Source of the DNA: Candidatus Scalindua sp.
GTDB taxonomy: Bacteria > Planctomycetota > Brocadiia > Brocadiales > Scalinduaceae
Length of the DNA stretch: 32,000 bases
Direction of reading: 5' to 3'
Assembly: GCA_031316235.1 (NCBI GenBank)
Contig: JALDRA010000001.1
Coordinates: 3,810,001 to 3,842,000, forward strand
The notes under the pieces are model-generated. The model ran no database searches. It was given only the letters and a program-made list of their open reading frames with translations, and was not told the DNA's origin. A program made the translations under genes and the position numbers. This document shows, one piece after another, positions 340 to 26,320 of this stretch. How positions within the stretch are numbered: the stretch's first letter is position 1; every line of letters starts with the position of its first letter.

Positions 340-1830
340 ATGATGGATGGTAAGATGAAGACATGTAAGGGTATAAAATCTATTTCCTTGACAGCTTGTA
401 TTTTTCTTTTGTTCTCAATATTTACAACCTTAGAAGCATTTGCTGCAGAGTATTATATTGACCCGGTAAGTGGAAAGGATTCTGATACAGGGTTAAGTCA
501 GGCACTTGCATGGGCAACTATTTCGTATGCTATGGAACAGTTGTCAGCGGGAGATACCCTTTTCCTGATGGATGGAACTTTTACTGAGAGTCTTAATATA
601 ACAATATCGGGCAAACCGGGTGACCCAATTACGTTCAAAGCTCTTAATGATGGAAAAGTAATAATAGATGGGAAAAATTCCAGGATTCCATTGTTGATTG
701 AAGGGACTGATGCCAACCATAAAACGTATATTGATGTAGAAGGGATCGTATGCAGAAATTCTAACAGTGATATAGTTCAAATAAAACGGAGTGATAATAT
801 CAGCATTAAACGGGTATCTGCATATAATGCTGATCCTGACGGAAACTTCGTTGCTTTTTCTATAGCTTATGATTGTACTAATATCCTTGTTGAAGATTGT
901 GCAGCCTCAGGTACAGGGAGAAAACAGTATAATGCATTTTCAGATAGTAAAGTTACTTTCAGACGATGTTGGGGGAGGTGGATAGACCATCAATGGGGGA
1001 ATTGGAATTCATGTCTGGACATCTATGGGGCTGATGATTGTATAGTTGAGAACTGTATTGTTACTATGGATTCAACAGTAACAAAGAAGGTACATGGTAT
1101 AGAGATAGTCAATCAAAGTAATCCTGACGCAGACAGAAATAAAATTTATGGTAATATAGTCTACGGAATAAACGATTATGGTTATATTGTTGCCAGTGCA
1201 GGAGGGCATCATATAAGAGATAATAAGCATGTCGATAATGTGGCAATTATGGAGGGGAATTCTAAAGGTGGGTTCCTTCTAAAAGCAGATGGTAATTGGA
1301 CAGGAGATAGGTTAACACTTGTCGGCACATCAGATGTTGATTTAGTCAGGGTCGAGGCAAACCCATTTGGAGAAGATCCTGATTTTCAAATCCGAGGGGT
1401 TTTGCGTAATTCCGTTTTGCTTTCAGGTGATGTGGGTATAAAGATTACATCATCACCATTAATCAAATCTTTTACAAATAAATATAATAATCTTTGCAGT
1501 TTAGCAATCCCTTATTCCGGTAGGGCATCGCAGGGTGCAGGTGAAGCGGCTATTAAAGACACAATTCCCAGCTTCGATACAGTAAAATATGGTAAAGGGG
1601 CCTATTTAATCAGACCGGCAAACCTAAAAGGTAAAGGGGAGAACGGAGCAGATATAGGCGCGGAGATATTATATCAATATATCGATGGTATACTACACAG
1701 AGATGATCACCATAGATTATGGCCGTGGCAGATGGAAGATAGAATCTTTGCAGAAACAGGAGTCAGTGTGACCTGGGAAGCGAAGGGAGGTATTTGGAAA
1801 ACATTAAATGGTGTATATCCTGAGAATTAA
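340..1830 (+). CDS. Secreted right-handed parallel beta-helix repeat protein (pectate-lyase fold), paralog 1
   Basis: 496-aa ORF with an N-terminal hydrophobic signal-like segment ending LEAFA/AEYY. The cap motif YYIDPVSGKDSDTG...AGDTLFLMDGTFTE...SGKPGDPITFKALNDGKVIIDG is typical of beta-helix proteins. Alternative start ATG 355 (MKTCKGIKSIS) aligns better with the paralogs. Confidence 0.8.
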   Translation: MMDGKMKTCKGIKSISLTACIFLLFSIFTTLEAFAAEYYIDPVSGKDSDTGLSQALAWATISYAMEQLSAGDTLFLMDGTFTESLNITISGKPGDPITFKALNDGKVIIDGKNSRIPLLIEGTDANHKTYIDVEGIVCRNSNSDIVQIKRSDNISIKRVSAYNADPDGNFVAFSIAYDCTNILVEDCAASGTGRKQYNAFSDSKVTFRRCWGRWIDHQWGNWNSCLDIYGADDCIVENCIVTMDSTVTKKVHGIEIVNQSNPDADRNKIYGNIVYGINDYGYIVASAGGHHIRDNKHVDNVAIMEGNSKGGFLLKADGNWTGDRLTLVGTSDVDLVRVEANPFGEDPDFQIRGVLRNSVLLSGDVGIKITSSPLIKSFTNKYNNLCSLAIPYSGRASQGAGEAAIKDTIPSFDTVKYGKGAYLIRPANLKGKGENGADIGAEILYQYIDGILHRDDHHRLWPWQMEDRIFAETGVSVTWEAKGGIWKTLNGVYPEN

Positions 1831-2063
1831 ATCATTCAAACCGAGATTGTCTCTATTGCATAAATTAATCCACTCCAACATCCTTTTTACTTCACAATGT
1901 GTGTGTCCTTTTTTATATACTTTAGTCTTCCTGCTTATTTTTACCCTGGGATAGATTGCCCGTAATCCCATTTGACACATGTATGCCTGAACTCTCACTC
2001 CGCCTATTTCAAAATCTTATCGCCTTAATCCTTCCCGTATCTTTCGACTTCCATAAAACAGAT

Positions 2064-3911
2064 GTTCACCCCTGAAGCAAAAGGTCTTTTAGGCTATAAC
2101 CAGTTTATTTTACATTGTTTATACGCTGTTTCGTGAGCTTCTTTCTCGTGACTACACGCACCTCTCTATGGGGCAATACAATTGGCAAGGTTATCTTGAG
2201 TGCTTTAAGAAGCTTTTGGGTATTCTCCCTTGGTCTTGGTATTTTTATGCATGCTCCCTGGTCTTTGACTTTCATTTCTACAGAACAAAGTGTGCTCAGT
2301 TGAGCTATCCCCTCAGTGACTGTCATGTCAAATTTCTCCCATGCCCGGCGTAGATGCCGGATAATCATATATGACAACATTACTACCAACACATGGCCCC
2401 GAGTGCTTGATTCTAATCTGACATGGATTGGCCGTACCTCTAAATGTACTGTCTTGCAATCACGGAACGCTCTTTCTACTTCTGTCAAATCTTTGTAGCG
2501 GTCATGAACTCCTTCTTTATCCAATTCTTCTGCCGAAAGATCAGTCTTAATGACATAACACCCATCAAGCAGCGACATTTCTTTGAGCACCTTGTCGTCC
2601 TGTTCTAAAAACAACACCCTTCCTTGTTCCTTTGATTGGACAGATAGCCATTTATCCAGCTTTTAATCTAATTATCTTTTTCTCTACCTCTTTCTGTGCT
2701 GTTGTTACTCGTGCCTTCGGGTGTTTGCTGAGATACTCATCCTTGTTTTGAAGGAAGTTTTCGATACAGTGGAGTTTTGACAATCGAGTCTGTGTCATTT
2801 CATCTGCACGTACTGGATTACGCCTTAAGACATACCGGATACCGTCTTCCTCAACCTCGCATACCTCCTTATCGAACAGCTCCATCTGGATTACCCCTGT
2901 CTTGATGAGTGACCTGATCTGGGGTTTTGTTATTGCTGTTATGTAGTGAAAGTGCTCGGGAAGATTGTCTACTTGTGCCTTTTTAATCATTCCCCGATCA
3001 CCGACAAAGGTCATACTCTTGCAGCCAAAAAGCTCTCCTGCTTTTTCTACCTGTGAGAAAGGTTTTCGGGTCTTGAGTGTTACCATGGAATACCTCTGTG
3101 GAAACAGCGTCTCCATACTCGTCACACAATAACCCGATAACTATTTGCTTTTTCCCCTTCTTCCCATCTCTGCCATAGCCATAATCACCAAAGAAATTCT
3201 TCTCACCTTCCAGATAACTGCTCGTCACATCGTAGAGGAATAATTGTGGAAGAGCTTTTCCCCGTCTTGAAACAAACAGGGCTTTCTCTATTTCATCTTG
3301 ATTTATCGACAACCATTCAAGGTTTTCGTAGAGATTATTTTCATCAAATCCACGCAAGAGTGTCAGAACATCACATGCCGCATGGCTTTGCGCAAGCCGC
3401 ACTGCTGAGAGACGTGAACCTTGATCTATAACCCGCGCAATAACCTGCCAAAGCGCTAACTTCCCGGCAAAACTTGTCCCTAATGCCTTTTCTATTCCCA
3501 ACTTTTTTGCCGTCTGGTATACCGCCCAAACCGCTCCCACCGACAATCCTTCCTGCAATGCAACGGAATCTTTGAGGGAACCGAGTTCGGATAAATCGTC
3601 TTTGTGTTTCAGTGCAAGTTTTATTGCGGCAATTTCTCCCGGTGTACAGTGGGAAATATTAGCAATGGTGCGTTTTTTGACTTTGCCATTTTCACGATAA
3701 GACTCTCTCAAAAGAGTGGAGCGGTAAATTTTCTTCTTTGATGATGATTTGTTTTCTACTACATGCATGACTACTGTATTATAATAAACTCTCCCGTAAT
3801 TGCAAATAAAAAATACAATTTATAAAAATATATTAGTGACTACACAATAAGGGGGGGAATTTGCCTGACTACTATACTATAAGAGTGTTAATGCGTTTTA
3901 TAGGGGTGAAC
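2064..3911 (-). mobile_element. Decayed IS1634-family (IS4-like) insertion sequence; boundaries tentative
   Basis: Contains the three transposase fragments. The only candidate terminal inverted repeat I found is GTTCACCCCT (2064-2073) versus AGGGGTGAAC (3902-3911). That gives a ~1.85 kb element, which fits the family size. A 10-bp match is weak evidence for the ends. Confidence 0.5.
2105..3768 (-). pseudogene. IS1634-family DDE transposase, disrupted into three ORFs (2998-3768, 2652-3125, 2105-2617)
   Basis: The N-terminal fragment MHVVENKSSSKKKIYRSTLLRESYRENGKVKKRTIANISHC is typical of IS1634 transposases. A frame switch near 3050-3070 moves ...NTQDPKTF into the frame reading SQVEKAGELFGCKSMTFVGDRGM (DDE Asp context). 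A second break lies between 2617 and 2652. Confidence 0.8.
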
Positions 3912-4027
3912 TTCCGATACAAGCGTGATGATAAAAAAAAACTGAAGAAAAACTCATATCTGCGGATAATACAATAAAATAGCTATTTTATTGTAATGTT
4001 GCATAGTTAAATAACTGTTTTAATCGT

Positions 4028-4112
4028 ATAAAAGGCAAACCATTCGAAAGAATGCGACGCAAAGCTACTACCTAAGTCCTAATTCCAGGATACGGCCGCA
4101 GGGCTGCACAGT
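4028..4112 (+). promoter_or_regulatory. c-di-GMP-I (GEMM-I) riboswitch aptamer in the 5' leader of the beta-helix paralog 2 gene
   Basis: 4034-4066 reads GGCAAACCAUUCGAAAGAAUGCGACGCAAAGCU. This matches 30 of 33 positions of the V. cholerae Vc2 aptamer as I recall it (GGCAAACCAUUCGAAAGAGUGGGACGCAAAGCC). It includes the AUUC-GAAA-GAAU GNRA hairpin and the ACGCAAAGC core. The 3' element GCAGGGCUGC (4098-4107) fits the GCnGGGyUnC consensus. It lies 50 nt upstream of the ATG at 4162. Confidence 0.8.
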
Positions 4113-4161
4113 ATCTTCAATATGTGGCCTTTACGGTTAAAATTTATAAGGAGATGCTGTT

Positions 4162-5667
4162 ATGATACGACATTATCATGTTAAAGTATTCAAATCTATT
4201 TTTTTAATAGTTTGTTTTTTTGTTATGTTTTCGGTGGTTGTGACCTTAGAAGCATTAGCTGCAGAGTATTATATTGACCCGGTAAATGGAAAAGATTCTG
4301 ATACAGGGTTAAGTCAGACACTTGCATGGGCAACTTTTTCGTATGCTATGGAACAGTTGACAGCAGGCGATACTCTTTATCTCATGGATGGGACTTTTAC
4401 TGAGAGTCTAAAGGTGACTATTTCTGGAATACCAGGCAACCCAATTACGTTTAAAGCTCTTAATGATGGGCAGGCAACAGTGGATGGAAGAAATTCCAGA
4501 ATTCCTTTCAGCATGAGGGGGGCTTCTACTTCAAACCATTTAAAATATGTTGATGTTGAGGGGATTGTTTTTAGAAATTCTTCTAATAATGTGATAGATA
4601 CAAAATATATAGATCATGTAACTTTCAGGAGAGTATCAGGGTATGATGCTGATGCAAATCTTAATGTTGTGGTGTTTTCATTTTGGGCTTCAGACAATAT
4701 ACTTGTTGAAGATTGTGCAGCTGGCGGCACAGGGAGAAAAATGTTTTCTTTTTTCAACTGTACATTTGTAACATCAAGACGCTGTTTTGGTTTGTGGAAA
4801 TCAACTAATCTAACAGAGACGGAGGGTATAAATCCCTATGGTGCATCTGATTGTCTTCAAGAAAACTGCATCCATATGGATGATCCTGCAGGAGATAAAA
4901 ATGTAAAAAATGGAATACTGATAGTCGACAATGGTGGAGTGGGTGGATCCCGGAACAGAGTATATGGATGTATTTCAAGGGATGCTAATGCTAATTATAT
5001 GATAAGCTCTCAAAAATCTATATTAATGACAGGCAATGAGTTTAAAAACAATGTTTCACTCAATGCAGACAATTTTGGGATACAACAACGTGCTGGGAAT
5101 AATTGTAAGATGATGAATTTTACTATTGTTAATGCTGCGAAAAATGCTGTAAAGGTTAATGCACAGTTATTTGGGGATTCGGGTATACTTTATGGTGATA
5201 TGCGTAATTCTTCTTTAATTTCATCCGGCGGTACTGGTATCAATGTGGTAAATTCAATAGAAGTGAAAGGTTTTGTTCATAGCTATAACAATCTGTATGG
5301 CATGACGAACAACTATTCAGGGACATCTGCTGGAACAGGAGAAATCTCTGTTAATCCGAATTATGATACTGAGACTTATGGAGATGGTGCTTATCTTATG
5401 GTCCCTATTCCCTTAAAGGGGCGGGGTGAGAACGGTGCAGATATAGGCGCTGAGGTATTATATCAATATATCGATGGCACCTTATATAGAGATGATCAGC
5501 ATCGGTTATGGCCATGGCCAATGGAAGACAGAATCTTTGCAGAAACAGGTATCAGTGTTACCTGGAAAGCAAAAGGCGGGCTTTGGAAAACATTAACAGG
5601 AGTCTATGGTAATCCTACACACATTGCGGCCCCAAAAGGGTTTAAAATGCTTAATACCAACTCATGA
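4162..5667 (+). CDS. Secreted right-handed parallel beta-helix repeat protein, paralog 2 (divergent central region)
   Basis: 501-aa ORF with RBS AAGGAGA 7 nt upstream and a signal-like N-terminus ending LEALA/AEYY. The first ~110 aa and last ~90 aa are near-identical to paralogs 1 and 3; the core is diverged. Confidence 0.85.
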   Translation: MIRHYHVKVFKSIFLIVCFFVMFSVVVTLEALAAEYYIDPVNGKDSDTGLSQTLAWATFSYAMEQLTAGDTLYLMDGTFTESLKVTISGIPGNPITFKALNDGQATVDGRNSRIPFSMRGASTSNHLKYVDVEGIVFRNSSNNVIDTKYIDHVTFRRVSGYDADANLNVVVFSFWASDNILVEDCAAGGTGRKMFSFFNCTFVTSRRCFGLWKSTNLTETEGINPYGASDCLQENCIHMDDPAGDKNVKNGILIVDNGGVGGSRNRVYGCISRDANANYMISSQKSILMTGNEFKNNVSLNADNFGIQQRAGNNCKMMNFTIVNAAKNAVKVNAQLFGDSGILYGDMRNSSLISSGGTGINVVNSIEVKGFVHSYNNLYGMTNNYSGTSAGTGEISVNPNYDTETYGDGAYLMVPIPLKGRGENGADIGAEVLYQYIDGTLYRDDQHRLWPWPMEDRIFAETGISVTWKAKGGLWKTLTGVYGNPTHIAAPKGFKMLNTNS

Positions 5668-7884: not shown

Positions 7885-8445
7885 TTCAAAAATTCTCTGA
7901 GAATGTACTCGATAAAAATCAGCATAATGGTTAAAAAATTGCTGAAAGAGGAGTGGAAAAGTGTAGATGATGTTGTTAAACACACCAGTTAATGTGTAAA
8001 AAATAGACAGTAACACCAGGCAACTCCTGAGATTTGAAAAATAAAAATAGTTGATTCTACTCAAAATCAAATTTCTGCTGAAAATAGACCGCACATCAAA
8101 TCCAAATAACTCGCTGCAAACGGTAATGATGAAACCTTAATTTTCTCTCCTTCCGTTTCTGTTTGTGAAAAATATGGTCATTATGATTAATTCAAGGTTA
8201 AAGATTAAAGAGTATGTGCTTTGAGTGCCTGAAATATCCTCCATATGAAAACAGTGAATTTTCAGTAAATTAGCTTATCTTCGGAGTTTTTCATCTTCAT
8301 TCTGTGTGATATTCCCTTCAATATTTCTCCATCGTAAAACTCTCAAATATTGTAACTTCCTGATAACAGGAAAGATAACCCGTGCGATTAGTGGTGGTAT
8401 GCAATTTGCGATTTCAGTGCGCAAGGTAAAAACTTTTACCATCTG

Positions 8446-8520
8446 GAAAAGGCAAACTGCCTGAGAGGGTACGAAGCAACCCATTGGTCTCAGTACTGTT
8501 TTTCATGGTATGTTTGCAAT
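8446..8520 (+). promoter_or_regulatory. Structured 5' leader, possible degenerate or variant GEMM-I-like aptamer
   Basis: Shares the 11-mer AAAAGGCAAAC (8447-8457) with the riboswitch at 4030-4040. A GNRA-capped hairpin UGCCU-GAGA-GGGUA (8458-8471) follows, then ACGAAGCAAC where GEMM-I has ACGCAAAGC. I could not fit the 3' half to the consensus. An alternative fold exists: GCAAAC/GUUUGC outer stem with a CUGAGA/UCUCAG inner stem. Confidence 0.35.
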
Positions 8521-8525
8521 ATATT

Positions 8526-8579
8526 GCCGTACATATACCGTCCTTGGTGGGACGGTATATGTACGGCTCAATTTTTTTT
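8526..8579 (+). terminator. Strong intrinsic terminator or attenuator immediately upstream of the RBS of the paralog 3 gene
   Basis: Perfect 18-bp stem GCCGTACATATACCGTCC / GGACGGTATATGTACGGC with loop TTGGTG, followed by TCAATTTTTTTT. The RBS AAGGAGG starts at 8581 and the ATG is at 8599. Confidence 0.75.
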
Positions 8580-8598: not shown

Positions 8599-10464
8599 AT
8601 GTATAAAAATTATGCTTTAAGGGTTTTTAAATCTATTTCAATTTATATTCTTTTATTCTTAACTTCAGGTTTATTATTATTCGAAACTGTTGAAACAAAT
8701 GCGGAAGATTTTTATATAGCCCCCAATGGATCAGATAACAATATTGGCTCGTCAAATGCACCATGGAGAAGTTTTGATAAGTCTATGGAAGTTCTTCGAC
8801 CTGGAGATACCCTTTTTCTCATGGATGGAATTTTTACTGAGAGGCTCAGGGTTACCATCTCGGGAACATCATCCAACCCAATTATCTTTAAAGCTCTTAA
8901 TGATGGAAAAGCGATAATAGATATGAAGGGAAGCGGTGATTTGGGTACGGAAGCTTTGAAAATTGCAGGAACAGATAATAAACATCTGGCATATATTGAG
9001 GTTGAGGGGATTGTATGCAAAAATGCTAACGGGAATGTGGTTGCAATAAGACGTGCTGACAATATCAGTATAAGACGAGTATCTGCGTATAATGCAAATC
9101 CCGATGAAAACTATGTTGTTTTTTCTGTAGCTTATGATTGTACTGATATCCTTCTTGAAGACTGTGCAGCTTCGGGTACAGGGAGAAAGATGTATGATGT
9201 GTTCTCAGACAGTAATGCCACTTTCAGGCGATGTTGGGGCAGGTGGGTAGATCATAAATTGGGGACTTGGAATTCATCTTTGGACGTCTATGGAGCTGAT
9301 GATTGCATAGTTGAGAACTGTATCTTTACTATGGATCCGAAAGTAACAAGGAGGGTTCATGGAATAGGGATAGTGGATCAAAGTAATTCTGAAGCAGACA
9401 GAAACAAAATCCATGGTAATGTCGTATACGGAATAAACTCGTATTGTTATTATGTCAGTAGTGGTGGAGGGCATCATATAAAAGATAACAGGCATGTCGA
9501 TAATGTGGCAATTATGGATAACCGTTCTATCGGCGGTCGTGGTTTTTTACAGTCAGCAGATGGGAATTGGGCAGGGGACAGGTTCACACTTGTCGGTTCA
9601 TCTGATGTTGATTTAGTTACGATAACGGCAATGGCTTCTGGACAAGACCGTGATTTTGAAGTCAGAGGAGTTTTTCGTAATTCAGTTTTATTTTCAGGTG
9701 ATGTGGGTATCAAGGTTACTTCTTCGCCTTTAATCGGCTCTTTTACAAATAAATATAATAATCTCAGCAGCATAACAAATCCTTATGCAGGTATAGCATC
9801 TCAAGGGTGGGGTGAAGGAAATATTGAAGGGGTAATTCCCGATTATAGTACATCCAAATACGGGAAAGGTGCCTATTTAATCAGGCCGGTAAACTTAAGA
9901 GGAAAAGGGGAGAACGGTTCAGATATAGGCGCTGAGGTATTATATCAATATATCGATGGGACACTACATAGAGATGATCAGCATAGATTATGGCCATGGC
10001 CGATGGAAGACAGGATTCGTGCAGAAACAGGTGTCAGTGTGACCTGGGAAGCAAGCGGGGGGTTGTGGAAGACACTGGATGGTGTTTATGATGGTCGCCC
10101 AACCACAGGTACACCAATCACAGGTACACCAACCACGGGTACACCAACCACAGGTACTCCTTTTGGTGTGCTGATGAGCAGCCCGGAACCGGGTTCGGCA
10201 TTGACAACTCAGGCCGTTACCTTTGAGTGGAACGCTGGTGCCGAAGTTACCGGGTACTGGCTGGGGGTGGGGACAAGCTTTGCATCAGTAAGCACTTCGC
10301 CATGGGGAGACATATATGCGGCATCATCAGGGACAAATACAATGCAACAGGTAACAGGAATCCCCACAAATGGGAATCCTGTCTATCTACGATTGTGGTG
10401 GAGGAATAATGGTGTGTGGGATTACGAGGACTATACTTACCAGACGGTTAATGACGGCTCTTAA
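8599..10464 (+). CDS. Secreted right-handed parallel beta-helix repeat protein, paralog 3, with a (PTTGT)4 linker and an extra C-terminal ~95-aa module
   Basis: 621-aa ORF with a signal-like N-terminus and the same cap motif (FYIAPNGSDNNIG...PGDTLFLMDGIFTE...PIIFKALNDGKAIID). The C-terminal extension VTFEWNAGAEVTGYWLGVGTS...GNPVYLRLWWRNNGVWDYEDYTYQ matches the modules of the 15217 and 19059 proteins. Confidence 0.9.
   Translation: MYKNYALRVFKSISIYILLFLTSGLLLFETVETNAEDFYIAPNGSDNNIGSSNAPWRSFDKSMEVLRPGDTLFLMDGIFTERLRVTISGTSSNPIIFKALNDGKAIIDMKGSGDLGTEALKIAGTDNKHLAYIEVEGIVCKNANGNVVAIRRADNISIRRVSAYNANPDENYVVFSVAYDCTDILLEDCAASGTGRKMYDVFSDSNATFRRCWGRWVDHKLGTWNSSLDVYGADDCIVENCIFTMDPKVTRRVHGIGIVDQSNSEADRNKIHGNVVYGINSYCYYVSSGGGHHIKDNRHVDNVAIMDNRSIGGRGFLQSADGNWAGDRFTLVGSSDVDLVTITAMASGQDRDFEVRGVFRNSVLFSGDVGIKVTSSPLIGSFTNKYNNLSSITNPYAGIASQGWGEGNIEGVIPDYSTSKYGKGAYLIRPVNLRGKGENGSDIGAEVLYQYIDGTLHRDDQHRLWPWPMEDRIRAETGVSVTWEASGGLWKTLDGVYDGRPTTGTPITGTPTTGTPTTGTPFGVLMSSPEPGSALTTQAVTFEWNAGAEVTGYWLGVGTSFASVSTSPWGDIYAASSGTNTMQQVTGIPTNGNPVYLRLWWRNNGVWDYEDYTYQTVNDGS
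10099..10158 (+). repeat. Coding 15-bp tandem repeat x4 (CCAACCACAGGTACA-like) encoding the PTTGT/PITGT linker
   Basis: Four consecutive 15-nt units, each with at most one substitution relative to the first unit, read directly from the sequence. Confidence 0.9.
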
Positions 10465-15216: not shown

Positions 15217-17403
15217 ATGAAAACGTTTTATGATTACTGGAAAAGTATACTGTTTTTTAATTTAATGTTTTGTCTCTTCACTTTTTTTGCGGGAACTGTT
15301 GATGTAAATGCGGCGTGTACTCCATCCATAACGTCACCTGCGTGCGGCGGCACGATACAAAGCGGTTCAGATATCTCCTTCAGATGGAATACATGTTCAG
15401 CAGATTCAGCGTATTGGCTGTCAGTTGCAACAGACCCTTCAAAATTTAAAAGGTCTCCCTTTGGAGATATTTTCAGCAAAAATTTGGGTTTTGTAAGTGG
15501 CCATACCGTAAAGATTCCTGCATCGGTACCCGATGGAAGCACCGTGTATGTGAGATTGTGGTATAAAAGAGCTGTCTGGAAATACATCCAATGCAACTAC
15601 GAAATCGGTTCAGGGGGGGGCGGAGTAGTATCAATGATGACAAGCCCTGTTCCAGATTCTATGCTGTCTGGTGCTACGGATACCTTCACGTGGTCCGCCA
15701 ACGGTGCGAACGTGTCAAAGTGCTGGCTGTATGTCGGGAGTACTGCAGGAGGTAACGACATATACGACAGTGGCGCTTTAGGATCGTCTACGAGTGATAC
15801 GGTAAGCGGCCTGCCGACAGATGGAAGTAAGGTATATGTGCGTCTTTTTTATAAAACCGGTACTGATACTACCTGGAACCAGATTGACTATACCTATACG
15901 GCATATACCGATAATACAACCGGCGGCGGCAGCGGTGGTGGCGGAGGAGGAACTCCTGAAATGACAAGCCCCACACCAGGTTCCACGCTGTCTGATGCAA
16001 CGGAGACCTTCACGTGGTCAGCTAATGGTGCAAACGTATCAGCCTGGTGGCTGCATATCGGCAGTTCAACAGGAGGTAAGGGCATACATGACAGCGGTGC
16101 TTTAGGATCGTCTACAAGTGATAAGGTAAACAGCCTGCCGGCAGATGGGAGCAAGGTATATGTGCGTCTCTTTTACCAGACTGGTACTGATGACTGGAGC
16201 CAGATTGACTATACCTATACGGCATATACCGATAATACAACCGGCGGGGGCGGCAGCGACGGTGGCGGTGGTGGAACTCCACCTCCCAGCGGTACCATAC
16301 AGGTCGGCAGCGACCAGGTAAGCCAGAATGCTGCCTTTCAGGCTGTAGCAAGCAGTAATACCCTTTATTTTGTCTATAATAAAACGGGGAAACTCTATCT
16401 TACAAAATCAACCAACGGAGGGACGGCGTGGAGCAGTCCTCAGCTTGCCAGCCACATCAACACAAACAAAAAGTTTTCACTTGCGGTTGATAGTTCTGGC
16501 AAATTGCATCTTGTCTATTCTAACGGTGACGGTACAGCGAGCTGGTATCGATCAAACTCCGGTGGGAAATGGAATAGCCCCGTACTGATGAACGATAAAG
16601 CGAATTTCCAGGATACCGCACCGGTTGTTGCCGTGGACGGCAATGATAACGTTCATGTTATTTTGTGGTCTTACGCTACCAATTGGAAAAGTACAAACTG
16701 GAAAGCGGGGAGCCGGATTGTCTACCGTCGCAAGCGCGCAGGCCAGGCCAATTTTGAGGCGCCAGAGTTCTGGAAAGCCGGGTTCGGCAGCCTCGGGGCG
16801 GGTAACGGAACGATAGAGACAAGTGCGCAGGGGGATGTGCATTTTATATATGCGGGTTTGGGGAGTTCCAACGGAAATAATGCGGTTGAACGGCGCATCC
16901 GACGCAAAAACGGTACCTGGGATTCGCGGCACGACATTTTTCCCAAAATATATATTGGTGACTATGCCATATCAGGTGCGGTCGGCAGTGACGAGGCCCT
17001 TCATTTAGCGATCTTTGAAGCGGGGTCAACTCCCAGAGGAGTCGGATACTTCAAGAGTACCCAGCCGAATATACTGAAAAGAGTCTGGCAGAAGTATGAA
17101 TACTGGGAAGCGAATACCGATATACTGGCGGCGCCCAACGGGGATGTCTGGATGACTTCAGCAAATCACCCCTGGGGAAATAAGAACGACCCTGAAGAGT
17201 ATCTGGCATCATACTGGCACTATGATAAATCGGCCGGTAAATGGACCAGCAGGATTCACGTATCGAAGGCTAATTATACCAATGTGGACCACACTCATTT
17301 CGGGCAGCCGAAACTCCTCCTCTATAACGGAAACGTACTGATGTTCTATGCGGAGAAGGCACCAGGATCAAACTTTAAATTCTACCAGCGCACCTTTAAA
17401 TAG
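15217..17403 (+). CDS. Secreted multidomain protein: Cys-containing N-terminal module, two tandem ~95-aa modules with poly-Gly linkers, and a C-terminal BNR/Asp-box beta-propeller-like domain
   Basis: 728 aa with a signal-like N-terminus (...GTVDVNA/A). Modules are of the form TFTWSANGANVS.WWL..GS..GG..I.DSGALGSSTSD.V..LP.DGSKVYVRLFY...IDYTYTA. Asp-box-like motifs: STNGGTAWSSP, SNSGGKWNSP and DKSAGKWTS. Confidence 0.85.
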   Translation: MKTFYDYWKSILFFNLMFCLFTFFAGTVDVNAACTPSITSPACGGTIQSGSDISFRWNTCSADSAYWLSVATDPSKFKRSPFGDIFSKNLGFVSGHTVKIPASVPDGSTVYVRLWYKRAVWKYIQCNYEIGSGGGGVVSMMTSPVPDSMLSGATDTFTWSANGANVSKCWLYVGSTAGGNDIYDSGALGSSTSDTVSGLPTDGSKVYVRLFYKTGTDTTWNQIDYTYTAYTDNTTGGGSGGGGGGTPEMTSPTPGSTLSDATETFTWSANGANVSAWWLHIGSSTGGKGIHDSGALGSSTSDKVNSLPADGSKVYVRLFYQTGTDDWSQIDYTYTAYTDNTTGGGGSDGGGGGTPPPSGTIQVGSDQVSQNAAFQAVASSNTLYFVYNKTGKLYLTKSTNGGTAWSSPQLASHINTNKKFSLAVDSSGKLHLVYSNGDGTASWYRSNSGGKWNSPVLMNDKANFQDTAPVVAVDGNDNVHVILWSYATNWKSTNWKAGSRIVYRRKRAGQANFEAPEFWKAGFGSLGAGNGTIETSAQGDVHFIYAGLGSSNGNNAVERRIRRKNGTWDSRHDIFPKIYIGDYAISGAVGSDEALHLAIFEAGSTPRGVGYFKSTQPNILKRVWQKYEYWEANTDILAAPNGDVWMTSANHPWGNKNDPEEYLASYWHYDKSAGKWTSRIHVSKANYTNVDHTHFGQPKLLLYNGNVLMFYAEKAPGSNFKFYQRTFK

Positions 17404-19058: not shown

Positions 19059-21500
19059 ATGAAAACGTTTTGTGATTACTGGAAAAGTATACTGTTTTTT
19101 AACTTAATGTTTTGTATCTTCACTTTTTTTGTGGGAGCGGTTGATGCTAAAGCGGCCTGTACTCCGGTCATAACGGAACCGGCCTGTGGTGGAACGATAC
19201 AAAGCGGTTCAGATATCTCCTTCAACTGGAACACATGTGCGGAAGATTCAACGTACTGGTTGTCAGTTGCGACAGACCCTGTAAAATTCAAAAGCTCTCC
19301 CTTTGGAGATATTTTCAGCCAGGATTTGGGTTTTGTAAGTGGCCATACAGTATCTATTCCGGCATCGATACCCGATGGAAGCACTATATATGTGCGGTTA
19401 TGGTATGAAAGAGAAGTCTGGAAATACATCCAATGCAGCTACCAGATTGGTTCAGGGGGAGGTGGAGTAATACCCGGGATGATAAGCCCCGCTCCGGGTT
19501 CCACGCTGTCTGGTGCAACGGAGACCTTCAGCTGGTCGGCCAACGGTGCGAACGTGTCCAAGTGGTGGCTGTACATTGGCAGTTCTTCAGGGGGCAATGA
19601 CATTTACGACAGCGGTCTTTTAGGGAAGTCTACGAGTGATACGGTAAGCGGTCTGCCGACAGATGGTAGCATGGTGTATGTGAGACTTTTTTACAAAATT
19701 GGCACTGATAAGTATAGAGAAATTGACTACACGTATACTGCATGTACGGGAAATACCGGTGGTGGAGTAATACCCGGGATGACAAGCCCGGCTCCAGGTT
19801 CCACGCTGTCTGGTGCAACGGAGACCTTCAGCTGGTCGGCCAACGGTGCGAACGTGTCCAAGTGGTGGCTGTACATTGGCAGTTCTTCAGGGGGCAATGA
19901 TATTTACGACAGCGGTCTTTTAGGGAAGTCTACAAGTGATACGGTAAAAGGTCTGCCGACAGATGGTAGCATGGTGTATGTGAGACTTTTTTACAAAATT
20001 GGCACTGATAAGTATAGAGAAATTGACTACACGTATACTGCACATACGGGAAATACCGGTGGTGGAGTAATACCCGGGATGACAAGCCCGGCTCCGGGTT
20101 CAACGCTCTCTGGTGCAACAGAGACCTTCACGTGGTCGAGAAACGGTGCGGACGTTTCAGCCTGGTGGCTCCATATCGGCAGTTCTGCAGGGGGTAAGGA
20201 CATTTACGACAGCCGTGCATTGGGAACGTCTACGAGTGATACGGTAAGCGGTCTGCCGGCAGATGGAAGCACGGTATATGTGCGTCTTTTTTACCAGATT
20301 GGTACTGATGACTGGCGCGAAATTGACTATACCTATACGGCATATACAGATAACACCGATGGCGGTTGTGGAACTCTCCCTCCCAGCGGTATCATACAGG
20401 TCGGCACTATACAGGTAAGCAATGATGTTGCCTTTCAGGCGGTAGCAAGTAGTAATACACTTTATTTTGTCTATAATCAAGATGACAAACTCTATCTTTC
20501 CAAATCCGCCGACGGGGGAACGACATGGAGCAGCCCTCAGCTTGCCAGCCACCTGAATACAAACAAAAAGTTTTCCCTGGCTGTAGATAGTACAGGAAAA
20601 TTGCATCTTGTCTATTCGACCAGTAACGGTTCTGCAAGCTGGTATCGTTCAAACTCCAGTGGGAAATGGAATAGTCCCGTATTGATGAACGATACCCCGG
20701 ATTTCCAGGACACCGCTCCGGTTGTTGCCGTGGACGGCAATGATAACGTTCATGTTATTTTGTGGTCTTATCCTACCGATTGGCAAAATACAAACTGGAA
20801 AGCAGAGAGCCGTATTGTTTACCGGCTAAAGATCGCAGGTCAGGAAGATTTTGACGCACCCGAGTTCTGGAAAGCCGGGTTCGGCAGCCTGGGGGCCGGT
20901 AACGGAACGATAGAGATAAGTTCACAAGGGGATGTGCATTTCCTGTATGTAGGTTTGGCAAGTTCCAACAGTAATAATGCAGTCGAGCGGCGTATCCTGC
21001 ACAAAAACGGCACCTGGGATTCACGACATGACATTTTTCCCAAAATATATATTGGTGATTATGCCATATCAGGTGCGGTCGGCAGTGACGAGGTCCTTCA
21101 TATGGCCATCTTTGAAGCGGCGCCTACTCCCAAGGGGGTCGGGTACTTCAAGAGTACCCAGCCGAATGTACTTAAGAAAGTCTGGCAGAAGTACGAATAC
21201 TGGGAAGCGAATACCGATATATTGGTGGCACCCAATGGGGATGTCTGGATGACTTCAGCGAACCATCCCTTTGGAACCATGCATGACCCTGAAGAGTACC
21301 TCGCATCATACTGGCACTATGATAAATCATCCAGAACATGGTCCAGCAGGATGCACGTATCGGAGGCTGATTATACCAATGTGGACCACACTCATTTTGG
21401 TCAGCCGAAGCTCCTCCTCTATAACGGCAACGTACTGATGTTTTATGCGGAGAAGGCACCAGGATCAAACTTTAAATTCTATCAGCGGAACTTTAATTAG
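19059..21500 (+). CDS. Secreted multidomain protein, paralog of 15217-17403 with three tandem ~95-aa modules plus the BNR/Asp-box propeller-like domain
   Basis: 813 aa with the same architecture. Canonical Asp-box SKSADGGTTWSSP, then SNSSGKWNSP and DKSSRTWSS. The C-terminal ~370 aa are highly similar to the paralog at both protein and DNA level. Confidence 0.9.
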   Translation: MKTFCDYWKSILFFNLMFCIFTFFVGAVDAKAACTPVITEPACGGTIQSGSDISFNWNTCAEDSTYWLSVATDPVKFKSSPFGDIFSQDLGFVSGHTVSIPASIPDGSTIYVRLWYEREVWKYIQCSYQIGSGGGGVIPGMISPAPGSTLSGATETFSWSANGANVSKWWLYIGSSSGGNDIYDSGLLGKSTSDTVSGLPTDGSMVYVRLFYKIGTDKYREIDYTYTACTGNTGGGVIPGMTSPAPGSTLSGATETFSWSANGANVSKWWLYIGSSSGGNDIYDSGLLGKSTSDTVKGLPTDGSMVYVRLFYKIGTDKYREIDYTYTAHTGNTGGGVIPGMTSPAPGSTLSGATETFTWSRNGADVSAWWLHIGSSAGGKDIYDSRALGTSTSDTVSGLPADGSTVYVRLFYQIGTDDWREIDYTYTAYTDNTDGGCGTLPPSGIIQVGTIQVSNDVAFQAVASSNTLYFVYNQDDKLYLSKSADGGTTWSSPQLASHLNTNKKFSLAVDSTGKLHLVYSTSNGSASWYRSNSSGKWNSPVLMNDTPDFQDTAPVVAVDGNDNVHVILWSYPTDWQNTNWKAESRIVYRLKIAGQEDFDAPEFWKAGFGSLGAGNGTIEISSQGDVHFLYVGLASSNSNNAVERRILHKNGTWDSRHDIFPKIYIGDYAISGAVGSDEVLHMAIFEAAPTPKGVGYFKSTQPNVLKKVWQKYEYWEANTDILVAPNGDVWMTSANHPFGTMHDPEEYLASYWHYDKSSRTWSSRMHVSEADYTNVDHTHFGQPKLLLYNGNVLMFYAEKAPGSNFKFYQRNFN
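19461..20360 (+). repeat. In-frame 300-bp tandem repeat x3 (units 1 and 2 ~97% identical; unit 3 diverged)
   Basis: GGTGGAGTAATACCCGGGATGA recurs at 19461, 19761 and 20061. My hand alignment of units 1 and 2 finds 9 mismatches in 300 nt. Confidence 0.95.
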
Positions 21501-22107: not shown

Positions 22108-23355
22108 ATGGCAAAGGAACTGAAAAAAAAATTCCTGATTACGGGTGGGAAAGGTTTTCTCGGCAGTGCTGTTGTTAAAAGACTCCTGGCCCTGGGGTAT
22201 GAACTTCGGCTCTTAATAAGGCCTGGTAGTGAGAAAACTTCTTTTTATGACTATCTCCAGAAAAATTGTCATGGCAATTTTTTCAATGAGAGGGTTTTTT
22301 ATAATCTGGAAATATATGAGGGGGATATAACAGCTCCATTTTTAGGATTGGGGCAAGATGCGTATAACAGACTGGCTGATGAAACAGATGAGGTTCTTCA
22401 TTGTGCAGCAGCCACCCACTTTGAAAGTTCGAGGGCAGCGGAACTCAAGGCCGTAAATGTTCATGGTACAGAGAATATGCTGCGGTTTGCTGCCTCAGGC
22501 AGGACGAAGAGATTCCATTACATAAGTACTGCGTATGTAGCCGGGAGACAAAACGGTACTGTGTATGAAGAAGGTGATCTGGTTAATGTGCCAGTGTTTA
22601 ATAATGAGTATGAGAAGACCAAATTTTTTGCAGAAAAATGGGTCATTGAATATTCACGTAATAACGCAATCCCTTATACGATTTATCGACCAAGTATCAT
22701 CGTGGGAGACTCAAGAACCGGTTTCACGTGTAAATATGACAATATCTACACCTTTGCAAAGGCAATGTCAAACCTCCGGAATGGACATCTCACTGGAGAA
22801 ATGAGCAGGAGGTATCGTAGAGACGGAACTCTACCCGGTGAAGTTCTCGAAAGTGCTGCTCCTGTTCGTGTACCAGGTGATCCCGATGCCTTCGTAAACC
22901 TCGTTCCGGTAGACTATGTTGCAGACGCCATAATAGAAATTCTCAGTAAAAGAGAGACGATTGGAAAAATCTTTCATATTGTAAACCCTGATCCTCCAAC
23001 AATAAGTGAACTGAGAGATCTGCTCATCTCCATCCTCGAAATAAAGGGCATACGATTAATTATTGATGGAAAAATGGATGGAAAACGTTTGAGGTCGCAG
23101 GAGAGATTATTTCTGCGCCAGACTCGTACATACTATTCCTACTTATTTAATAAATTACGATTTGATTCCACAAACACCAGAGTGGCATTACAGGATACAA
23201 ACATTCAATGCCCGGCTATAAGCCATGATATAGTAAAAATATTAATGGAATACGCGCTTTTTCATGATTGGGGTGGAAGAAAAAATACTTCTGGTAAAGA
23301 GCCAGTACCATGTGAACGGCTGTTATCAGATTGTAAGGATTACGTATCCGGATGA
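22108..23355 (+). CDS. NAD(P)-binding thioester/acyl reductase-type SDR (male-sterility / NAD_binding_4-like)
   Basis: 415 aa. ITGGKGFLGSAVVKRLL Rossmann, GDITAPFLGL...VLHCAAATHF, YISTAYVAG, YEKTKFFAEKW (YxxxK) and RPSIIVGDSRTG. This pattern is that of terminal thioester reductase domains and fatty acyl reductases. Confidence 0.8.
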   Translation: MAKELKKKFLITGGKGFLGSAVVKRLLALGYELRLLIRPGSEKTSFYDYLQKNCHGNFFNERVFYNLEIYEGDITAPFLGLGQDAYNRLADETDEVLHCAAATHFESSRAAELKAVNVHGTENMLRFAASGRTKRFHYISTAYVAGRQNGTVYEEGDLVNVPVFNNEYEKTKFFAEKWVIEYSRNNAIPYTIYRPSIIVGDSRTGFTCKYDNIYTFAKAMSNLRNGHLTGEMSRRYRRDGTLPGEVLESAAPVRVPGDPDAFVNLVPVDYVADAIIEILSKRETIGKIFHIVNPDPPTISELRDLLISILEIKGIRLIIDGKMDGKRLRSQERLFLRQTRTYYSYLFNKLRFDSTNTRVALQDTNIQCPAISHDIVKILMEYALFHDWGGRKNTSGKEPVPCERLLSDCKDYVSG

Positions 23356-23834
23356 AGAGTAAAGCCTGTCAAGGGAAAGAGATTGAACAGAAAGATGCTG
23401 AAAAACAGCCTGAAATAACGGCACAGACTACCCACACGGAGTATTTCGAAAAAATGATGTACAACCGTGTAAACAATAGTCCAATACCAAAAATCAGGAG
23501 CCTCAACGCTATAATTCAGTTTGACATAGTTGGTGATAATCCGGGAAACTGGATTGTTATTATTGAAAAGGGGGTAGTGAAACGGATAGTGAGCGGCTTT
23601 GTTGAAAAAGGTTCTGCCGAGGGTGACTGCTTACAGGAAAACGTAAACAACGACACCGTATCATCAGGCACGATACGTAAGTCCAAATGCACTTTCCAGC
23701 TCGATGGGAATACGTTCATGTCTATTGTCCGACGGGAAATTACACCGCAACATGCCCTGTTTCAGAGAAAAGTACACATACGCGGTGATATGTTACTTGC
23801 TCTCAAGATGAATGTCCTGGTAAATTATTTATAA
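23352..23834 (+). CDS. SCP2 (sterol carrier protein 2-like) lipid-binding domain protein
   Basis: 160 aa. The C-terminal FQLDGNTFMSIVRREITPQHALFQRKVHIRGDMLLALKMNVL is the typical SCP2 ending. Its start overlaps the upstream stop (ATGA). Confidence 0.75.
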   Translation: MKSKACQGKEIEQKDAEKQPEITAQTTHTEYFEKMMYNRVNNSPIPKIRSLNAIIQFDIVGDNPGNWIVIIEKGVVKRIVSGFVEKGSAEGDCLQENVNNDTVSSGTIRKSKCTFQLDGNTFMSIVRREITPQHALFQRKVHIRGDMLLALKMNVLVNYL

Positions 23835-23845
23835 CGATACGAGCT

Positions 23846-26320
23846 ATGGAAATGATCATCAGATTAGTATTAAAATATCGAATACTTTTTGTGATACTGA
23901 TAGTTCTCGTTACAGGATTTTTTGGATACTACGCACGTAATTCAACCACTGACAATTCCATTGAAGTATGGTTAAGTAAAGAGGATGATGAACTTGATTA
24001 TTATTATCATTTTATCGATACATTTGGGGATGAAGAATTTCTCATTACTGTCATAGAAAATGAAGCGCACTTCAGCAGAAAAGGAATAAGACAGATTGAT
24101 AGTCTGACAAAAAAGTTTGAGAAACTTGAAGGTGTTAAAGAGGTAATCTCATTAGCGACTGTTTTTAAAGACAAATTATCGTCCTCTCACTTTAAAGAAG
24201 CAGTAAACAGAAGAGGCGGCAAAACGATCATTGAGGTCTTTAAAGAAGAAGTCGTATCAGATGTAATGTATGTGAATAACATTATATCTGCTGATGGGAA
24301 AATAACAGCAGTCATTGCTACCGTTGCCAAGGGGTCTCCTGAATCGAGAATGAAGCTGGTAAAAGAAACAAGAAACATAATAAATGAAACATATTCCAGA
24401 GGAGGTGCTATCGGAATGAGTGTGCCAGACAGTGAGCAGGGGGTAGATCTGGAAACTGAAAATGGAGTGCCTGGAATTAATTCATCGGATATCAGTGAAA
24501 TCCAGGCACGAGAGCTGTCACTATTCTCCAGGTCTGTTTCTATCGGTACACAGCTATTCAATAAATTTGCAATGAGATTGAATCTGGTTGAGCAGGAACC
24601 TCTCCCAGACACTGTATATTTAGCAGGCCCAACTATTGTCAATGCCGAACTTGATCGGATGTCACAGAGAGATATAAAAATTTTCATGCCTCTCATGTTT
24701 ACCATAGCCGTGGTTGTACTCATACTGCTGTTCAGGAATATTTCTGGTGTCCTGATTCCAATAGTAACGATCAGCATAAGTAGTGTGTGTATTGTCGGCC
24801 TGTTCACTTTCTTTGATAATAAGATGAATATGATCTCGGGAATGTTGACACCTCTCATTTTCATTATTTCTCTCGCGACTACGATACACATTCTCAACAG
24901 ATTTTATCTTGAATCGAAACTCTCGACAGATAGACAGAAGAACATTATTCAATCAATAAAAGAGATAGCTATACCCTGTTTCCTGACATCTGCAACAACC
25001 TCTATAGGTTTTCTCTCTTTTGTGGTGAGTGATGTTCAACCAGTCAAGACCATGGGAATATTTACTGCAGCAGGTGTCATGATGTCTTTTTTTATTTGCA
25101 TACTGTTGATTCCCATACTCGTCTCTCTGATTCCGGGAAAAGGGAGAGATATTCCTCCGCCTCTCTTGAAGAATGGGGTTACAGGTAATGAAAAATTCAA
25201 TGGTATTTTAGGTCATGTTGGAGCTTTTGTTCATACGCATAACCTGTTGATCATTATTATCAGCTTGATACTGATCTGTATTGCCGGGTATGGAGGAACA
25301 AGGATTAAGGTAGAATCTAACATTTTCGAATCTTTTCCCGGGGATAGTGAAATATCACGGTCTACTTCATTTATTGAAAGCAGTTTGATGGGACTCCTAC
25401 CCGTGGAGATCGTTTTAAGAGCTCCGGAAGCAGCGGGAATTTTTAGGCCGGAAGTATTGCATGAGATGGAGTCTCTGCAGAAGTATTTCCGTACGATTCC
25501 GGAAGTTACCGCCAGCATTTCTGTAGCAGATTATGTCAGGAGAATTCATACAGTGCTGGGTAATGATAAGGGAAACAGCGATGAGATACCTGAAGAGAAG
25601 GCACGTAATTATGCACAGCTTGCATCTCTCCGCGGAGATGCAATTGTAAAAACTCTTTATTCAAAGGATTGCGATGAGGGGCGGATTTCCGTCAGGATGA
25701 AAAATGTCAGTTCTTCCCGGTATCAGGAGATAATGAAGGACATTAAAGGGTATATCAATGGAAATGTCCCTGTGGGCATTGGTTGTACTATTACGGGCAT
25801 TGTTCCCCTCCTTATGGATATGCAGGGATATCTCGCCCTGAGTCAGATAAAGACTTTTCTGCTCGCGTTCATTTTTATTTTTATTTCGATTACGCTTTTA
25901 CTGAAATCCGTACGTTTCGGTATAATCAGCATGATTCCAAACCTGGTGCCAATTGTTATCACGCTGGGTGTAATGGGTTTTCTCAAAATCTCTCTGGATG
26001 TTGCAACTATCATGATTGCAAGTGTGGCAATAGGAATTTCCGTCGATGATACCATTCATTTTCTCTATCGCTTCAAAAGAGAGTTAGCAAAAGACAAACA
26101 CTACTATCAAGCAATACAGCGCACGCTGTCCGGCGTCGGTAAGGCAATACTCTTTACCACAATAATTGCAACATCAGGTTTCCTTATATTCTGCTTATCG
26201 AACTTCAAGCCTATTCAGTATTTCGGATTACTCACGGGCATCACTATGGTAACCGCATTAATTGCAGATATTTTCATTCTGCCTTCATGTATATTACTTT
26301 TTAAACCAAAATTTTTGTAA
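23846..26320 (+). CDS. MMPL/HpnN-like RND superfamily lipid transporter
   Basis: 824 aa with an N-terminal TM helix. Two large soluble loops are each followed by a block of ~5-6 hydrophobic helices (about aa 275-440 and 655-820). RND-type motif AIGISVDDTIHFLYRFKRE. Confidence 0.85.
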   Translation: MEMIIRLVLKYRILFVILIVLVTGFFGYYARNSTTDNSIEVWLSKEDDELDYYYHFIDTFGDEEFLITVIENEAHFSRKGIRQIDSLTKKFEKLEGVKEVISLATVFKDKLSSSHFKEAVNRRGGKTIIEVFKEEVVSDVMYVNNIISADGKITAVIATVAKGSPESRMKLVKETRNIINETYSRGGAIGMSVPDSEQGVDLETENGVPGINSSDISEIQARELSLFSRSVSIGTQLFNKFAMRLNLVEQEPLPDTVYLAGPTIVNAELDRMSQRDIKIFMPLMFTIAVVVLILLFRNISGVLIPIVTISISSVCIVGLFTFFDNKMNMISGMLTPLIFIISLATTIHILNRFYLESKLSTDRQKNIIQSIKEIAIPCFLTSATTSIGFLSFVVSDVQPVKTMGIFTAAGVMMSFFICILLIPILVSLIPGKGRDIPPPLLKNGVTGNEKFNGILGHVGAFVHTHNLLIIIISLILICIAGYGGTRIKVESNIFESFPGDSEISRSTSFIESSLMGLLPVEIVLRAPEAAGIFRPEVLHEMESLQKYFRTIPEVTASISVADYVRRIHTVLGNDKGNSDEIPEEKARNYAQLASLRGDAIVKTLYSKDCDEGRISVRMKNVSSSRYQEIMKDIKGYINGNVPVGIGCTITGIVPLLMDMQGYLALSQIKTFLLAFIFIFISITLLLKSVRFGIISMIPNLVPIVITLGVMGFLKISLDVATIMIASVAIGISVDDTIHFLYRFKRELAKDKHYYQAIQRTLSGVGKAILFTTIIATSGFLIFCLSNFKPIQYFGLLTGITMVTALIADIFILPSCILLFKPKFL

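Follow-up and report, generated by a model that had tools for sequence, protein, structure and literature searches.

A c-di-GMP-I aptamer and a predicted translational OFF platform in the leader of a putative exported beta-helix gene of Candidatus Scalindua

The leader of a monocistronic gene for a predicted exported beta-helix protein of Candidatus Scalindua sp. carries a full-length c-di-GMP-I aptamer, which on the basis of our modelling most likely controls the initiation of translation as an OFF switch, a reading of the leader as a whole that we hold with moderate confidence. Its parts stand at different strengths: there is little doubt that 4024–4111 is a genuine c-di-GMP-I (GEMM-I) aptamer, control at the level of translation is probable, and the OFF sign is slightly favoured by the folding models. 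In this scheme, c-di-GMP would bind the leader and select between two conformers. Coordinates refer to the window, that is, the whole stretch of 32,000 nucleotides that was analysed. The elements of the leader and its gene are as follows, with nucleotide equivalents in Vc2 numbering.

4017–4036, + strand: 5′ strand of the alternative helix, including G4034 and, at the base of the first hairpin, G4035-C4036
4024–4111, + strand: c-di-GMP-I aptamer (full-model RF01051 match, pair list checked)
4034, + strand: G20-equivalent purine (G, c-di-GMP type; RF01051 consensus alignment)
4108–4118, + strand: anti-SD strand ACAGUAUCUUC, directly abutting the C92 equivalent and paired with 4150–4160 in the MFE structure
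4127–4143, + strand: 3′ strand of the alternative helix, GCCUUUACGGUUAAAAU, pairing with 4017–4036
4150–4160, + strand: SD strand GGAGAUGCUGU, with GGAG at 4150–4153, 8 nt before the AUG (4162–4164)
4162–5667, + strand: paralog 2, the gene under the proposed control (MRK01_16000, 501 aa; N-terminal hydrophobic helix and beta-helix)

A cmscan of the whole 32-kb window returned a single match at the gathering thresholds, RF01051 (c-di-GMP-I) at 4024–4111 on the + strand, which scored 60.3 bits (gathering score, 35 bits; E = 1.3e-9) and spanned model positions 1–87 of 87, untruncated and with only three non-canonical pairs in the full-length alignment. This bears out the first-pass annotation, which had recognized a c-di-GMP-I aptamer here and had named a search with RF01051 as the appropriate check. 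The first hairpin (4035–4060; 2 bp + 6 bp) opens with the GC/GC pairs 4035–4036 x 4059–4060, followed by the conserved AAA and GAC internal loop and a stem (4040–4045 x 4050–4055) of five standard pairs and one C-C, which is capped by a GAAA (GNRA) tetraloop at 4046–4049. An AAA linker (4061–4063) leads to the second hairpin (4063–4105), where a receptor-like CCUAAG (4071–4076) lies opposite UACGG (4091–4095), one change away from the 11-nt CCUAAG/UAUGG receptor when compared by sequence only. The GACGCAAAGC core is located at 4056–4065, and the 3′ GCAGGGCUGC at 4098–4107 agrees with the consensus GCcggGcUgC; the GNRA hairpin, the core and the 3′ segment had all been picked out in the first pass. 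The earlier annotation counted 30 of the 33 positions of 4034–4066 as matching the Vc2 aptamer.

In the RF01051 consensus alignment, the ligand-contact columns are occupied by G4034, A4061 and C4107, which we take to be G20, A47 and C92 in Vc2 numbering. G4034 is the unpaired purine just 5′ of GCAAAC that had been read as being of the c-di-GMP type, and the alignment supports that reading. The G20 position is the one altered in cGAMP-responsive variants (PMC9481103), and therefore the G found there makes c-di-GMP the ligand expected from the sequence. The element is also placed as a 5′ regulatory element would be: it ends at 4111, 51 nt upstream of ORF 4162–5667, with aptamer and AUG (4162) both on the + strand, and no ORF of at least 80 aa overlaps it. 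GEMM was defined by the GNRA loop, the AAA linker, a receptor when the loop is GAAA and a 5′ regulatory position, and is common in Planctomycetes (Weinberg et al. 2007). The presence of all four features at 4024–4111 supports the identity of the aptamer. Two other assignments were rejected, namely RF03167 (c-di-GMP-I-GGC), as clan competition retained RF01051, and cGAMP-type GEMM-Ib, for which A is expected at the position held by G4034. As a separate observation, UCGUAU (4024–4029), just 5′ of the aptamer core, is complementary to AUACGA (4165–4170) in codons 2–3 of the ORF, forming a 6-bp helix that encloses the entire leader in the MFE structure; the AUACG motif also occurs within the aptamer (4090–4094), giving rise to further alternative pairings.

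The terminator scan found no intrinsic-terminator-like site between 4111 and 4162, as the first-pass annotation had stated. The same annotation had drawn an RBS-covering pairing of GUAUCUUC (4111–4118) with GGAGAUGC (4150–4157). The pairing is real, includes exactly two G-U wobbles and exceeds chance, but its length was understated, because three additional pairs bring the anti-SD:SD helix from 8 to 11 bp (4108–4118 x 4150–4160). This helix is found in both the MFE and the centroid structures. The folding of the leader has a z-score of −2.95 relative to shuffled sequences, and in dinucleotide-shuffled controls the energy of the anti-SD:SD duplex (−15.8 kcal/mol) was reached in 22 of 2000 anti-SD shuffles and 10 of 2000 whole-linker shuffles. 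The probability that the SD strand is unpaired amounts to 0.10–0.26 in the free ensemble and to no more than 0.004 at most positions when the aptamer is enforced. With the SD-covering helix non-random and the terminator absent, the earlier suggestion of translational control is supported, its direction being predicted from the models.

Forcing the SD open revealed a second conformer, absent from the first-pass account, which supplies the switching logic of the platform. The sequence GUUUUAAUCGUA..AAGGC (4017–4028 and 4032–4036) is complementary to GCCUU-UACGGUUAAAAU (4127–4143), yielding a helix of 17 bp (12 + 5) between 4017–4036 and 4127–4143, the duplex energy of which (−16.5 kcal/mol) was reached in only 3 of 2000 shuffles. 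Because it consumes the G20 equivalent and the two closing pairs of the first hairpin, this helix and the ligand-binding core cannot coexist. The anti-SD is enclosed by the helix, with the SD remaining outside and free, and the unpaired probability of the SD rises to 0.36–0.92 when the helix is enforced. The energies of the two conformers are almost equal (MFE of −42.8 vs −40.5/−41.5 kcal/mol), and the gaps of 1–2 kcal/mol do not exceed the error of nearest-neighbour models, in which neither tertiary contacts nor the ligand are taken into account; in the free ensemble, the occupancy is ~0.71 for the anti-SD:SD helix and ~0.29 for the alternative helix. Enforcing the Rfam aptamer pairs costs ~6.8 kcal/mol, and typical binding energies of c-di-GMP are well above this cost. 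Since the SD is already ~71% sequestered in the apo equilibrium, a large dynamic range would need kinetic, co-transcriptional trapping; prefix folds ending at 4145–4160 hold the alternative helix, already at 4145 with the SD not yet transcribed, before the SD helix can form. The leader thus combines all the marks of a translational platform, that is, no terminator, an anti-SD helix and an alternative that excludes the aptamer, from which we infer its function.

The OFF mechanism would operate as follows. Without ligand, 4127–4143 would pair with 4017–4036 over 17 bp and take up both the G20 equivalent and the basal pairs of the first hairpin; the anti-SD would be enclosed, and the SD (4150–4153) and the AUG would be accessible. 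With c-di-GMP, the aptamer core would be locked and the strand 4127–4143 displaced, and the anti-SD (4108–4118), which follows right after the ligand-pairing C4107, would form the 11-bp helix with 4150–4160, leaving the SD occluded. Formation of the full alternative helix would require transcription to start at or before ~4017; the scan of the + strand upstream of 4024 detected no sigma-70-like promoter, and visual inspection gave only weak candidates. No orthologous leaders were recovered by exact-protein look-up or from the genome and metagenome contig collections, where no Scalindua was among the matches and the best relatives, 43–46% identical, belong to other phyla; because of this, the translational OFF reading is purely a product of modelling. 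Further points against it are the weak P1 (4025–4027 x 4108–4111), a potential competitor for the basal pairs of the SD helix, and the occurrence of such aptamers at only 2 of ~100 homolog loci elsewhere. A conventional P1 can take only two forms, this 3-bp bulged helix or a 5-bp ACUGU/ACAGU pairing (4014–4018 x 4108–4112) with a 15-nt spacer.

Upstream of homologs of the beta-helix gene, GEMM-I-clan aptamers were found at only two loci, L001 and L043, among 39 loci searched at Rfam gathering thresholds and all 103 loci, drawn from many phyla, screened with a regular expression, and the association is sporadic, not general. Both precede distant homologs, and the elements are non-orthologous to the one in the window. 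L001, from a Marinimicrobia MAG, encodes the closest homolog in the genome collection (46% identity), and its leader (2796–2946) contains, directly upstream of the gene, an RF03167 match of 70.9 bits (gathering score, 59) with a CCUCUUUAC anti-SD; a terminator is lacking, and an alternative partner of the anti-SD strand is the 5′ core of the aptamer. L043, a metagenome contig with a homolog of 35% identity, has tandem aptamers at 747–1152. The 5′ element matches RF03167 (747–834; 69.6 bits) and has its own terminator at ~874–900, and the gene-proximal element is a canonical RF01051 aptamer (1003–1092; 80.6 bits) with an anti-SD platform; the tandem may provide two-stage or two-input control. 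The gene-proximal elements of both loci have CU-rich anti-SD segments and lack terminators. Enforcing the aptamer and P1 of L043 yields an 11-bp anti-SD:SD helix around a small hairpin, with an SD unpaired probability of 0.00, the same shape as 4108–4118 x 4150–4160 in the window. The two loci lend support to translational OFF control at the Scalindua leader solely by analogy. It may also be recorded that the RF03167 copies of L001 and L043 carry A, not the G of the model, in the ACGC(G/A)AA column, and that a covarying GU/AC replaces GC/GC at the base of their first hairpin.

The same leader can be read with the opposite sign, such that a short, ligand-stabilised P1 (4025–4027 x 4108–4111) would capture the 5′ end of the anti-SD and open the RBS. 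The anti-SD does begin exactly at the expected 3′ strand of P1, immediately after the C92 equivalent, 4025–4027 and 4108–4111 allow three pairs and a bulge, and many GEMM-I switches are ON, the terminator-competing design having been described by Weinberg et al. (2007). However, with only 3 bp and a bulge this P1 is very weak, and when it is enforced together with the aptamer, the 7 bp that are left keep the SD sequestered (unpaired probability of 0.005–0.05 over GGAGAU) and the AUG becomes paired as well. We down-weighted the ON model because the SD stays closed under P1 enforcement; moreover, that model assigns no role to the strong complementarity of 4017–4036 with 4127–4143 (3 of 2000 shuffles). 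Translational activation by the ligand is accordingly unlikely in our estimate.

Also improbable is an arrangement in which the aptamer is genuine and its output is Rho-dependent termination, RNase access or mRNA stability, with the SD helix as a constitutive damper of translation. Such outputs would fit the ~71% pairing of the SD in the ligand-free equilibrium ensemble and the absence of an intrinsic terminator, and their mechanism would not be readable from sequence alone. What speaks against them is the presence of two mutually exclusive helices that both exceed shuffled expectation, one of which overlaps the ligand core, a signature of a structured platform, along with the parallel anti-SD architecture of L043. 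Translational OFF control remains the preferred reading of the leader.

The gene downstream lies in an array of three beta-helix paralogs. The further features of the window considered here are the following.

340–1830: paralog 1, a beta-helix paralog
2105–3768, − strand: pseudogene of an IS1634-family transposase, frameshifted (NF033559 profile) and lying upstream of the riboswitch
8441–8579, + strand: paralog-3 leader, with a degenerate GEMM-I-like element, a terminator hairpin and a U8 tract
8599–10464: paralog 3, a beta-helix paralog

The product of ORF 4162–5667 is 100% identical to MRK01_16000 of a Candidatus Scalindua sp. MAG. Pfam gave no match to paralog 2 even at E ≤ 10, and its fold was therefore taken from the profile-against-PDB search, AlphaFold and Foldseek. 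The AlphaFold model (pLDDT 87.9) begins with a hydrophobic helix at the N-terminus and continues as a right-handed parallel beta-helix; Foldseek matched it to carbohydrate-active beta-helix enzymes of the GH136, PL9, PL6 and AlgE types, and the family profile matched the N-termini of PL9/PL6 structures, with identities to the matched enzymes of 9–15% in both searches. Paralog 2 is thus predicted to be an exported polysaccharide lyase/hydrolase/epimerase-like beta-helix protein. Its neighbours include genes for a sulfotransferase, a GT2 glycosyltransferase, a DegT aminotransferase, GFO/IDH/MocA oxidoreductases and BNR-like proteins, which places the riboswitch locus in an exopolysaccharide-type gene neighbourhood. 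Farther along the window, two large paralogous-looking ORFs on the + strand (15217–17403 and 19059–21500; 728 and 813 aa) show weak BNR-repeat-like matches; after them, at 22108–26320, comes a reductase-SCP2-MMPL (RND-like) gene set. The IS remnant that the first pass had placed directly upstream of the leader is confirmed: three minus-strand frames (2998–3768, 2652–3125 and 2105–2617) tile positions 2–196, 199–330 and 346–481 of the IS1634 transposase profile NF033559, respectively. No inverted or direct repeats of at least 14 nt that could mark the IS ends were found in 1800–4200.

Paralog 2 is the most divergent of the three, as had been noted in the first pass: it shares 52% identity with paralog 1 and 46% with paralog 3, compared with 68% between paralogs 1 and 3. 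The coding sequences are mosaic. In alignment columns 1–100, paralog 1 is 59–84% identical to paralog 2 vs 38–53% to paralog 3, and in columns 150–400 it is 69–76% identical to paralog 3 vs 27–49% to paralog 2, a pattern suggestive of recombination or gene conversion. Within paralog 2, divergence is greatest in the central beta-helix region.

The statement that paralog 2 alone carries the aptamer is true at the Rfam threshold and needs qualification below it, since the paralog-3 leader contains a full-length RF01051 match (8441–8531; model positions 1–87) of 22.7 bits, collinear with the canonical aptamer, with an E-value of 0.037 when 600 nt were searched and of 0.67 when 11 kb were. The stems of the second hairpin of this GEMM-I-like element are broken. 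A perfect 18-bp terminator hairpin (8526–8568), the 5′ arm of which starts within the 3′ tail of the aptamer, is followed by a U8 tract (8572–8579). The 5′ part of the leader is homologous to the paralog-2 leader, the alignment being matched in 1 of 500 shuffles. Most simply, this is a decayed terminator-type GEMM-I leader, and it may have variant specificity. In its MFE structure, 8452–8516 is folded instead as one long hairpin. Before paralog 1, where 339 nt are available, no GEMM-like element was found at E ≤ 10, and comparison of the leaders gave no significant similarity. The decayed copy before paralog 3 at the same locus, the disruption of the region just upstream by an IS element and the best match of the homologs' leaders to the variant model RF03167 could be taken to mean that the paralog-2 aptamer is itself an inactive relic or senses another dinucleotide (3′3′-cGAMP or another), like variant GEMM-I classes, but this is very unlikely given its full-length 60.3-bit match with three non-canonical pairs only, the intact tetraloop and receptor, the G/A/C at the three ligand-contact columns, including a G at the position changed in cGAMP-type variants (PMC9481103), and the retention of RF01051 over the variant models in clan competition.

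The element at 4024–4111 is an ordinary member of a well-studied class, which automated Rfam-based annotation would flag. What the analysis adds is the two-helix OFF platform, the sporadic recurrence of the GEMM-I clan on a beta-helix family and the intact/decayed/absent series of paralogs. Tentatively, the three-paralog array may be seen as a case of riboswitch evolution after gene duplication, with the GEMM-I clan recurrently recruited to the beta-helix family across phyla. One copy, with an intact aptamer, would have been rewired to a translational OFF platform with an aptamer-invading strand; the second would retain a decayed aptamer still attached to a terminator; and the third would be aptamer-free, with a coding sequence that combines the other two in a recombinant mosaic. 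Recruitment would span Planctomycetota, Marinimicrobia and an unassigned metagenome contig, and would include the orphan GGC-type model. If this is true, it would point to a matrix-remodelling enzyme under c-di-GMP control, with relevance to the formation of anammox aggregates and biofilms. Aggregation and matrix production in anammox bacteria are important both ecologically and in wastewater technology, and the leader offers a testable cis-regulatory link between c-di-GMP and one exported protein of polysaccharide-active type in an uncultured marine anammox bacterium. The predicted OFF logic would suit the matrix-building state at high c-di-GMP, in which an enzyme that cuts or modifies the matrix would be repressed. 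The leader is a compact two-helix translational platform and is easily tested by mutation, and the decayed neighbouring copy, along with the occurrences at L001 and L043, makes the beta-helix family a candidate target of c-di-GMP effectors in several phyla.

Among known systems, the type example of RF01051 is Vc2 of Vibrio cholerae, upstream of tfoY (VC1722). Vc2 and the Scalindua element share the two hairpins, the GAAA tetraloop with its receptor, the AAA linker and the G/A/C contacts, as well as a 5′ position before a gene of extracellular function and the absence of a terminator. In Vc2, bound c-di-GMP reportedly represses translation of the gene. Unlike in Vc2, the host here is an anammox planctomycete, the gene encodes an uncharacterised beta-helix protein of carbohydrate-active type, and the platform would, in our models, use a long-range strand (4127–4143) that invades the 5′ core of the aptamer, besides the anti-SD. 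Terminator-type GEMM-I ON switches, exemplified by Bacillus Bc2, have the same aptamer class, and the paralog-3 leader displays their layout, whereas the paralog-2 riboswitch has no terminator and a predicted translational output of the opposite sign. Such terminator-type switches account for 78 of 322 GEMM instances (Weinberg et al. 2007). RF03167 (c-di-GMP-I-GGC) belongs to the same clan, CL00126, and precedes the closest homologs (L001 and L043); unlike L001 and the 5′ element of L043, the window element is best matched by RF01051, not RF03167. We know of no established ligand for the RF03167 variant class. Finally, the cGAMP-sensing GEMM-Ib of Geobacter has the fold and clan of the Scalindua element but a changed nucleotide in contact with the G or A base of the ligand (PMC9481103), the position that is G4034 in the window.
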